Notes: generated from the sequence alone by a model not told the origin. A DNA stretch of 14,865 nt from a virus (IMGVR_UViG_2531839179_000012); one strand, 5' to 3'. Positions 8,308 through 8,998 are shown, numbered from the stretch's first letter. Made by a program: numbers and translations.

Positions 8308-8667
8308 TTACGCCGCCTTGCCCAGCGTAAAATCAAAGTGGATGTCGTCATACGGGAATGACGTTCCGCGCTCGCTTTTTTCCAGTAAACCGTTGCTGAT
8401 GAGTGCGGTCACGTCAGTATGCACGCTTTTTACATCACGTCCAACCAGGGCTGCAATTTTTCGGATGGACATTTCTCCGGCACCAGTCATTGCCATCAGA
8501 ATGTCCATGCGTTTTGGTGTCAGTACCTTATGCATCATTTGCCAGTCAGGAAATGAAATAACGTTTTCTCTGGTTGCTTTTGCTCCGGTAGCTGCTTCCT
8601 GGAACGCAGACAGCACATCAGCCGTGAAATTATCCATTGACTCGATTCGGATTGTTACGGTTCTCAT
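8308..8667 (-). CDS. Putative antitoxin or regulator with helix-turn-helix (119 aa), second gene of an opposite-strand two-gene cassette
   Basis: Start ATG at 8665-8667, 1 nt after the upstream stop (TGAcATG). Central region ...KRMDILMAMTGAGEMSIRKIAALVGRDVKSVHTDVTALISNGLL looks like a winged helix-turn-helix. The track's longer ORF (to 8763) overlaps the upstream gene and is unlikely. Confidence 0.55.
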   Translation of the reverse strand: MRTVTIRIESMDNFTADVLSAFQEAATGAKATRENVISFPDWQMMHKVLTPKRMDILMAMTGAGEMSIRKIAALVGRDVKSVHTDVTALISNGLLEKSERGTSFPYDDIHFDFTLGKAA

Positions 8668-8668
8668 G

Positions 8669-8956
8669 TCAGATACCTCTGCGGATGGATTCAACGTCAG
8701 CCAGAAAATCAGCGAGCAGTTGTTCAATGGTGACAAAGCTGGTGCTGACTTCCTGACTACCAATGTGTTTGTGATCGCCTTTACCCCGTTCGTTGTCGTA
8801 ACGCATCACACACATGCCATCAACGACATAAGCCATGCTGTATTTGTAGTTGTGCTGGCTACCCAATACAGCAGGCTCCACTTCCCATATGCGGATTCGT
8901 ATGTATTCAGATTCACCGAGATGACGGATGAACTGTTTATACAGTCTGGATGGCAT
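8669..8956 (-). CDS. Putative toxin-like small protein (95 aa), first gene of the cassette
   Basis: GAGGAAG ribosome-binding site upstream of the ATG at 8954-8956. Contains ...YSMAYVVDGMCVMRYDNERGKGDHKHIG... From memory this resembles DUF6516/TumE-like toxin-antitoxin toxins, which pair with HTH partners; that assignment is unverified. Confidence 0.5.
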   Translation of the reverse strand: MPSRLYKQFIRHLGESEYIRIRIWEVEPAVLGSQHNYKYSMAYVVDGMCVMRYDNERGKGDHKHIGSQEVSTSFVTIEQLLADFLADVESIRRGI

Positions 8957-8974
8957 TTAAAGCTTCCTCTGGTT

Positions 8975-8998
8975 CTTGTTGTAAACAATAACAACAAG
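8975..8998. promoter_or_regulatory. Palindromic operator-like site in the promoter/5' UTR of the toxin-antitoxin-like cassette
   Basis: CTTGTTG-taaacaataa-CAACAAG (7-bp perfect arms, 10-bp spacer), immediately upstream of the ribosome-binding site of the first gene. Confidence 0.35.

Follow-up and report, generated by a model that had tools for sequence, protein, structure and literature searches.

Within the window, which is the whole stretch of 14,865 nucleotides of viral DNA analysed here, two small genes lie side by side on the minus strand, tumE encoding a 95-aa putative toxin and tumA encoding a 119-aa putative antitoxin and repressor. Both had been predicted from this DNA in an earlier note, and open reading frames are read for both on that strand with tumE as the first gene (Table 1). 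The single-nucleotide gap reported between them is also present, the tumE stop codon TGA (8671-8669) being followed by c (8668) and then by the tumA ATG (8667-8665); an AGAGG motif at 8680-8676 is positioned 8 nt ahead of the ATG of this second gene, and together with the TGAcATG junction it points to translational coupling of tumE and tumA. The ribosome-binding site that had been proposed for the first gene corresponds to GAGGA at 8969-8965, 8 nt from its ATG. The cassette has a promoter, operators, ribosome-binding sites and a terminator of its own and is a self-contained unit. We consider it likely that it is an intact TumE-TumA type II toxin-antitoxin operon, a moron within the early region of its lambdoid prophage.

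Table 1. Features of the tumE-tumA cassette and its surroundings, in positions of the window.
Feature	Position	Strand	Evidence
Upstream Rha gene (Phage_pRha domain)	7317-8090	plus	
Stop-free frame, 630 codons, in frame into Rha gene	7967-9856	plus	ORF reading
DUF4222 gene	8110-8286		
Cassette-specific DNA, 750 nt, absent from Stx1_14040	8280-9029		phage comparison
tumA-like, 119-aa putative antitoxin/repressor gene	8308-8667	minus	ORF call and family match
Intrinsic-terminator-like hairpin, then TTTTT, at tumA stop codon	8308-8330	minus	terminator scan
tumE/tumA junction TGAcATG, 1-nt gap	8665-8671	minus	read from sequence
tumE, 95-aa putative toxin gene	8669-8956	minus	ORF call and family match
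Shine-Dalgarno GAGGA, 8 nt upstream of tumE ATG	8965-8969	minus	read from sequence
Proximal operator O1, CTTGTTGT-N8-ACAACAAG, arms 8975-8982 / 8991-8998	8975-8998		inverted-repeat scan
Predicted P_tumE: -35 TGGACA 9013-9008, 17-nt spacer, extended -10 TG-TATTGT 8990-8985	8985-9013	minus	consensus scan
Distal operator O2, GTTGT-N8-ACAAC, weaker copy of O1	9006-9023		direct repeat D1
isrK-like small RNA with terminator 9122-9139	9068-9144	plus	Rfam RF01394, 61.9 bits
C4 antisense RNA	9169-9256	plus	Rfam RF01695, 80.1 bits
Rha-type antirepressor gene	9323-9859	plus	Pfam Phage_pRha, E 1e-24

The earlier note had remarked on a likeness of the 95-aa protein to DUF6516/TumE and had proposed profile searches of both proteins, and these give matches above the curated Pfam cut-offs in each case. 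The 95-aa protein matches the TumE model PF20126 (formerly DUF6516) with an E-value of 2.1e-15 and 56.9 bits (cut-off 23.4), the match spanning profile positions 6-81 of 81, so that this likeness reflects a real profile match. RefSeq names the product 'toxin-antitoxin system TumE family protein' (WP_001141116.1); no NCBIfam model matched TumE, and in PHROGs it matches phrog_16135 (E 2e-58), both cassette proteins sitting in PHROGs families of unknown function. An AlphaFold2 model of the window TumE (pLDDT 95.4) has six strands and a C-terminal helix. In the alignment of homologues TumE carries a conserved YDNERGKGDHKH motif, and in the loop DNExGKGDHxH none of the residues G60, D61, H62 and H64 varies among 36 homologues; this loop, rich in aspartate and histidine, suggests that TumE may be an RNase.

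The 119-aa partner had been described as a helix-turn-helix protein, and it proves to be a winged-helix DNA-binding protein, matching PF25212 (HVO_A0114) with an E-value of 6.5e-25 and 87.2 bits (cut-off 27.6) and, more weakly, the ArsR, MarR and IclR helix-turn-helix models. Its RefSeq product is 'HVO_A0114 family putative DNA-binding protein' (WP_001300492.1). The AlphaFold2 model (pLDDT 80.9) places a winged helix-turn-helix at the C-terminus, and the closest solved folds are winged helices of the ArsR/MarR type. The N-terminal strand-helix (approximately residues 1-35) is modelled at low confidence, with a pLDDT of 57-79, which is compatible with, and proves nothing about, folding of this segment on binding to TumE. 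Many TumA homologues are labelled 'glycosyl transferase family 1' in older NCBI records, an evident annotation error for 119-aa winged-helix proteins.

TumE-TumA was defined as a translation-targeting toxin-antitoxin superfamily by Durairaj et al. (Nature 2023, PMC10584680), and the earlier suggestion that the pair could be uncharacterised therefore does not hold at the level of the family: the superfamily was validated in 2023, and RefSeq already names these proteins. Six gammaproteobacterial DUF6516 proteins halted growth of E. coli and were neutralised by their neighbours, and the TumE of Allochromatium tepidum, the only one for which this was shown, reduced incorporation of 35S-methionine; an RNase activity was proposed, as a hypothesis, for the validated toxins (PMC10584680). 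The window pair resembles the superfamily, which is carried by bacteria and archaea and whose name RefSeq applies to the window protein, in its PF20126 domain and its bicistronic arrangement with a small DNA-binding partner, and possibly also in a small alpha+beta fold without a solved relative. There are also differences. The validated pairs are antitoxin-first members of subcluster 1a, and DUF6516 is described as 'predominantly downstream' of its partner (PMC10584680); from the lengths of the synthetic DNAs we estimate about 115-135 aa for their toxins and 75-110 aa for their partners, whereas the window toxin is 95 aa, shorter than theirs, and is encoded first. Their partners are unannotated hypothetical proteins, whereas that of the window is an HVO_A0114 protein with a C-terminal winged helix. 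The published fold, for which the PDB gave no confident match, is described as two helices packed against seven antiparallel strands, compared with six strands and one helix in our model, and neither operators nor a phage context are described (PMC10584680), whereas the window pair has both, the operators being predicted. The window pair has a short, toxin-first architecture of the TumE-TumA type, and its toxin function is predicted from family membership; by analogy with its validated relatives, TumE would be a growth-arresting toxin that blocks translation. Beyond single passing mentions, a search of the literature on TumE/DUF6516 returned only the 2023 paper and its preprint, and a search for HVO_A0114 found no paper.

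Toxin-first type II systems are exemplified by HigBA, MqsRA and HicAB, in which the antitoxin has a C-terminal helix-turn-helix and an N-terminal toxin-binding part. The cassette shares with these an upstream toxin gene, a putative antitoxin with a C-terminal helix-turn-helix and a presumed N-terminal toxin-binding part, and palindromic operators over the promoter, but there is no relationship in sequence or fold, TumE having neither the RelE, the MqsR nor the HicA fold.

The pairing of the two genes is widely conserved. A sequence search with TumE gave 114 clusters, all 114 of which carry PF20126, and a profile search gave at least 7,999 sequence clusters, the best 120 of the 7,999 all being short-type relatives. 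The comparison covered 154 loci, taken from genomes and from viral contigs (74 of them from IMG/VR), and these contain 155 TumE hits. A TumA homologue lies directly downstream of TumE on the same strand in 151 of the 155, in many phyla, and three of the four exceptions sit at contig ends. After refinement of start codons, the gaps between the two genes are mostly -20, -4, +1 and +4 nt, sizes that are typical of coupling. The cassette itself is present at 99% identity or more in nine complete E. coli genomes and as a 78%-identical variant in nine further ones. The RefSeq-named E. coli copies, to whose proteins those of the window are identical or 99% identical, lie in a lambdoid prophage integrated at yecE.

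The earlier note had also placed a palindrome with 7-bp arms in the promoter; the palindrome, O1, is indeed there at 8975-8998, although its arms are 8 bp in length. We found a second inverted repeat, O2, 28 bp from O1 and further from tumE. The predicted promoter P_tumE is sigma-70-like and overlaps both repeats, with the -10 box inside the O1 spacer and the -35 box inside O2 (in its spacer and arm). A lone inverted repeat of 8 bp carries little weight, given that 10 inverted repeats of at least 7 bp occur in this 1.1-kb stretch, and the case for operators comes from the recurrence of the arrangement across the TumE family. A perfect 5-N8-5 inverted repeat is present in 85 of 131 distinct upstream regions, compared with 11 +/- 3.3 (maximum 21) in shuffled sequences, an 8-fold enrichment, and two or more such repeats are present in 30 of the 131, compared with 0.5 expected from shuffles. 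Homologues have two inverted repeats 28 bp apart, of which the distal repeat incorporates TTGACA and the proximal repeat has the -10 box in its spacer. The half-sites vary by lineage (GTTGT, GATGT, GTTGG, GTTGC, TATTG and GGGCA) with the symmetry being kept, and at each locus both operators share one half-site sequence.

This variation is matched by changes in TumA at residues 79 and 84, which belong to the predicted recognition helix. Residue 79 is phenylalanine at all eight loci with GATGT half-sites, and valine or isoleucine at all 38 with GTTGT or GTTGG, and residue 84 varies with the final base of the half-site, being mostly glycine with GTTGG and arginine or threonine with GTTGT. Co-variation of the half-sites with the recognition helix supports autoregulation by TumA, and this, along with the family-wide recurrence of the repeats, lends weight to the earlier proposal that the palindrome is an autoregulatory operator. 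The evidence that TumA binds the O1 and O2 repeats and represses its own promoter is thus indirect, being drawn from comparison of sequences, and strong. The spacing between promoter and gene differs among homologues: in many from non-enteric bacteria (among L008-L081 and L111-L150) the proximal operator begins 18 nt upstream of the tumE ATG, contains the -10 box in its spacer, and ends exactly at the ATG, which predicts a leaderless mRNA. In the enteric prophage copies of the cassette the ATG is instead preceded by a leader, about 20 nt long, in which GGAG serves as the Shine-Dalgarno sequence.

We propose that transcription from P_tumE would give a single bicistronic mRNA, from which tumA would be translated by coupling across TGAcATG. 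TumA would bind and neutralise TumE through its flexible N-terminal strand-helix, and TumA dimers would use the C-terminal winged helix to occupy O1 and O2, covering the -10 and -35 boxes, such that the operon represses itself. Should synthesis cease or TumA be broken down, the TumE set free would halt translation. The biological pay-off could be retention of the prophage, abortive infection, or a coupling to the antirepressor switch.

The earlier note likened the layout of the cassette to that of prophage morons, and a phage comparison agrees with this. The related Stx1a-converting phage Stx1_14040 matches both flanks in the window and lacks precisely 8280-9029; the net difference in length is 747 nt, a multiple of 3. 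Since a related phage is without exactly these 750 bp, we conclude that the cassette is a moron, present through a discrete insertion or absent through a discrete deletion. The cassette DNA starts just past the stop codon of the DUF4222 gene and ends just ahead of the next promoter. The 78%-identical variant in phiSTEC1589-Stx1c is at a different site in the early region, on the opposite strand and adjoining antirepressor genes; near this variant, and between two antirepressor genes, are matches to the Rfam family sRNA-Xcc1 (RF02221; L088 1770-1860 / L156 6821-6911). The previous placement of the cassette between two Rha paralogs is accurate in that Phage_pRha domains are encoded on either side, at 7317-8090 and 9323-9859, but it omits the DUF4222 gene, isrK and C4.

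Many toxin-antitoxin pairs of prophages act in abortive infection, and defence against other phages or superinfection exclusion, with TumE being freed on infection, is a selected role, in place of prophage stabilisation, that is compatible with a toxin-antitoxin mechanism. The moron layout in the early region, with its own promoter and terminator on the opposite strand, would suit this role, as would the frequency of homologues in viral contigs (the 74 IMG/VR loci) and in Stx phages. Searches of PADLOC-DB 2.0, however, gave no specific match, with only an E-value of 0.045 to HEC-01B for TumE and only winged-helix similarity to CasR/Csa3 (E 1e-7 to 1e-2) for TumA; our literature search found no published test of defence, and many homologues are chromosomal and have no phage context. 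We therefore think it rather unlikely that defence is what the pair was selected for.

To the right of the cassette is a set of features associated with antirepressor control. The predicted isrK promoter (TTGATT at 9033-9038 and TACACT at 9056-9061) is back-to-back with P_tumE and is conserved in the alignment of related loci, and isrK is followed by the C4 RNA, which by analogy with P1 immI would regulate the downstream antirepressor. This arrangement of isrK, C4 and a Rha-type antirepressor resembles P1 immI (c4-icd-ant) and the isrK-orf45-anrP module of Gifsy-1 (PMC4825925), a resemblance of the cassette's neighbour and not of the cassette itself. In these published modules the antirepressor is translated only when a leader ORF is translated too. 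We found no description in the literature of a toxin-antitoxin pair divergent at an isrK-C4-antirepressor promoter. Two to four tandem isrK-C4 units are present at L084, L094, L103 and L104.

The head-to-head arrangement with isrK/C4 is nearly fixed, at a distance of about 100-110 nt, in lineages with TumE identities of 51-100%, and nearly the same spacing is kept where the identity is only 51-66%; about 10 bp separate the end of O2 from the -35 box predicted for isrK. These observations would fit a purely regulatory pair, in which the true targets of TumA as a repressor include the adjacent isrK-C4-antirepressor promoter that faces the other way, and TumE modulates TumA without being toxic, adding a further layer of antirepressor control, the more so as toxicity of the short, toxin-first TumE subfamily is argued by analogy. 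The same pair with its two operators nevertheless occurs without isrK/C4, as at chromosomal loci in Pseudescherichia, Pantoea and Buttiauxella and in many non-enteric bacteria. Moreover, every tested member of the family to which TumE clearly belongs is toxic (PMC10584680), and its invariant D/H loop looks catalytic rather than regulatory. A regulatory pair of this kind is accordingly improbable, and we favour a toxin-antitoxin operon.

Annotation of the plus strand at this locus is complicated by a family of open reading frames called 'Ash'. The Pfam Phage_ASH match (PF10554) in the long plus-strand ORF covers nucleotides 9056-9340 and therefore isrK and C4, so that 'Ash' is here a translation of two RNA genes; 'ash family protein' calls in RefSeq at the locus cover exactly these two genes. 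The second Rha gene may be readable from an ATG at 9175 as an 'Ash-Rha' fusion. We considered whether the annotated 'Ant' and 'ash family' ORFs are a sign that the cassette has split a gene, and rejected this because the cassette lies between the DUF4222 stop codon and the isrK promoter and because 'Ash' is the translation of isrK and C4.

The plus strand opposite the cassette is itself without stop codons, in a frame that includes all 649 nt antisense to tumE and tumA (Table 1). Its first ATG, at 8093, is 2 nt past the stop codon of the upstream Rha gene (8088-8090) and is preceded by AGGTG. The absence of a stop across 630 codons, and the long 'Ant' and 'ash family' ORFs that annotators call at the locus, might be taken to mean that the minus-strand ORFs are spurious and that the real gene is a plus-strand ORF of 588-615 aa, running from 8012 or 8093 to 9859. 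Both minus-strand proteins, however, have strong family matches, thousands of homologues and confident structure models, whereas Pfam matches in the plus-strand translation are confined to the last third, where the 'Ash' segment coincides with two RNA genes. We rejected the 615-aa ORF as the sole real gene on these grounds and regard it as extremely improbable.

The antisense frame is an unexpected feature. It is open in eight enteric lineages (the window, L088, L094, L100, L103, L104, L105 and L106), with pairwise DNA identities of 50-78%, and has 2-10 stops in six others (L002/L004, L005, L095, L101 and L006). When both proteins were recoded with the codon usage of the window, the frame was open in only 0.25-5% of trials per lineage. 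Antisense stops arise in tumE from TTA, CTA or TCA codons, and in tumA from Y/TA or T/CA codon junctions (the slash marking the codon boundary). Counting such at-risk sites over all lineages, stops occupy none of 136 in the open group and 24 of 112 in the closed group (Fisher p 1e-9), and with a single lineage for each group below 65% DNA identity the counts are 0/49 and 17/65 respectively (Fisher p 3e-5). The Pro105-Tyr106 junction is nearly invariant; in all closed lineages it reads CCY/TAY, which is an antisense stop, and no open lineage has a stop at this or any other at-risk site. In the open lineages the cassette lies within a phage operon and opposes its direction, whereas in the closed lineages it is chromosomal or beside a P4-type integrase.

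In L100 the start of the antisense ORF overlaps the stop codon of the upstream BRO-type gene, and 30 nt lie between its end and the gene that follows; in L094 there are ATGA overlaps at both ends, and in the window, L084, L094, L105 and L106 the frame enters the antirepressor in frame. In Gifsy-1 the leader ORF orf45 must be translated for the antirepressor to be translated (PMC4825925). We tentatively suggest that selection at synonymous sites in tumE and tumA keeps the antisense frame open, with ribosomes from the upstream gene translating through the moron, and that in most lineages this bridging frame continues through isrK and C4 into the antirepressor, a reading that we put forward while leaning slightly against it. 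We infer that an open frame would prevent Rho-dependent polarity on the operon transcript, and it possibly gives a route to the antirepressor that the C4 and IsrK RNAs cannot block. Common ancestry and codon-pair bias outside the model are possible contributors to the open frame.

The cassette is in itself ordinary, and, with a described family and proteins that have names in RefSeq, contributes little alone; the stop-free antisense frame is its one surprising element. If the suggestion holds, coding-type constraint acts at once on both strands over the same 650 bp, and this would be a general rule for the tolerance of opposite-strand morons inside phage operons; translation of the antisense frame would bear on how foreign genes are inserted against an essential operon without killing downstream expression. 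For the large TumE subfamily (at least 7,999 sequence clusters) the locus provides an anatomy, comprising a candidate catalytic loop, a two-operator promoter and antitoxin specificity residues, and it physically ties the cassette to the antirepressor switch of lambdoid prophages, including those of Shiga-toxin phages.

The immunity region of the window (933-3311 and 6059-6966) is full of IS elements, from which we conclude that the prophage is probably defective. A 383-aa transposase ORF (1836-2987) sits inside an IS3-family transposase pair (933-1751 and 2988-3311) and interrupts it, and between a cro-like gene (5772-5981) and the first Rha gene there is a two-ORF transposase element (6115-6959); in this particular strain, transcripts running rightward may fail to reach the cassette. 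A Shigella dysenteriae record contains a protein identical to the window TumA, which fits with the many IS elements in the window. The replicative DnaB-type helicase appears split on the plus strand into ORFs of 193 aa (11870-12451) and 259 aa (12482-13261), and in a related E. coli prophage it is a single gene of 1392 nt (L001 13738-15129); the split is probably a frameshift or deletion and a further sign of decay. Just to the left of the first Rha gene is a minus-strand ORF of 97 aa (6970-7263) with no Pfam match, which may be a second small moron.
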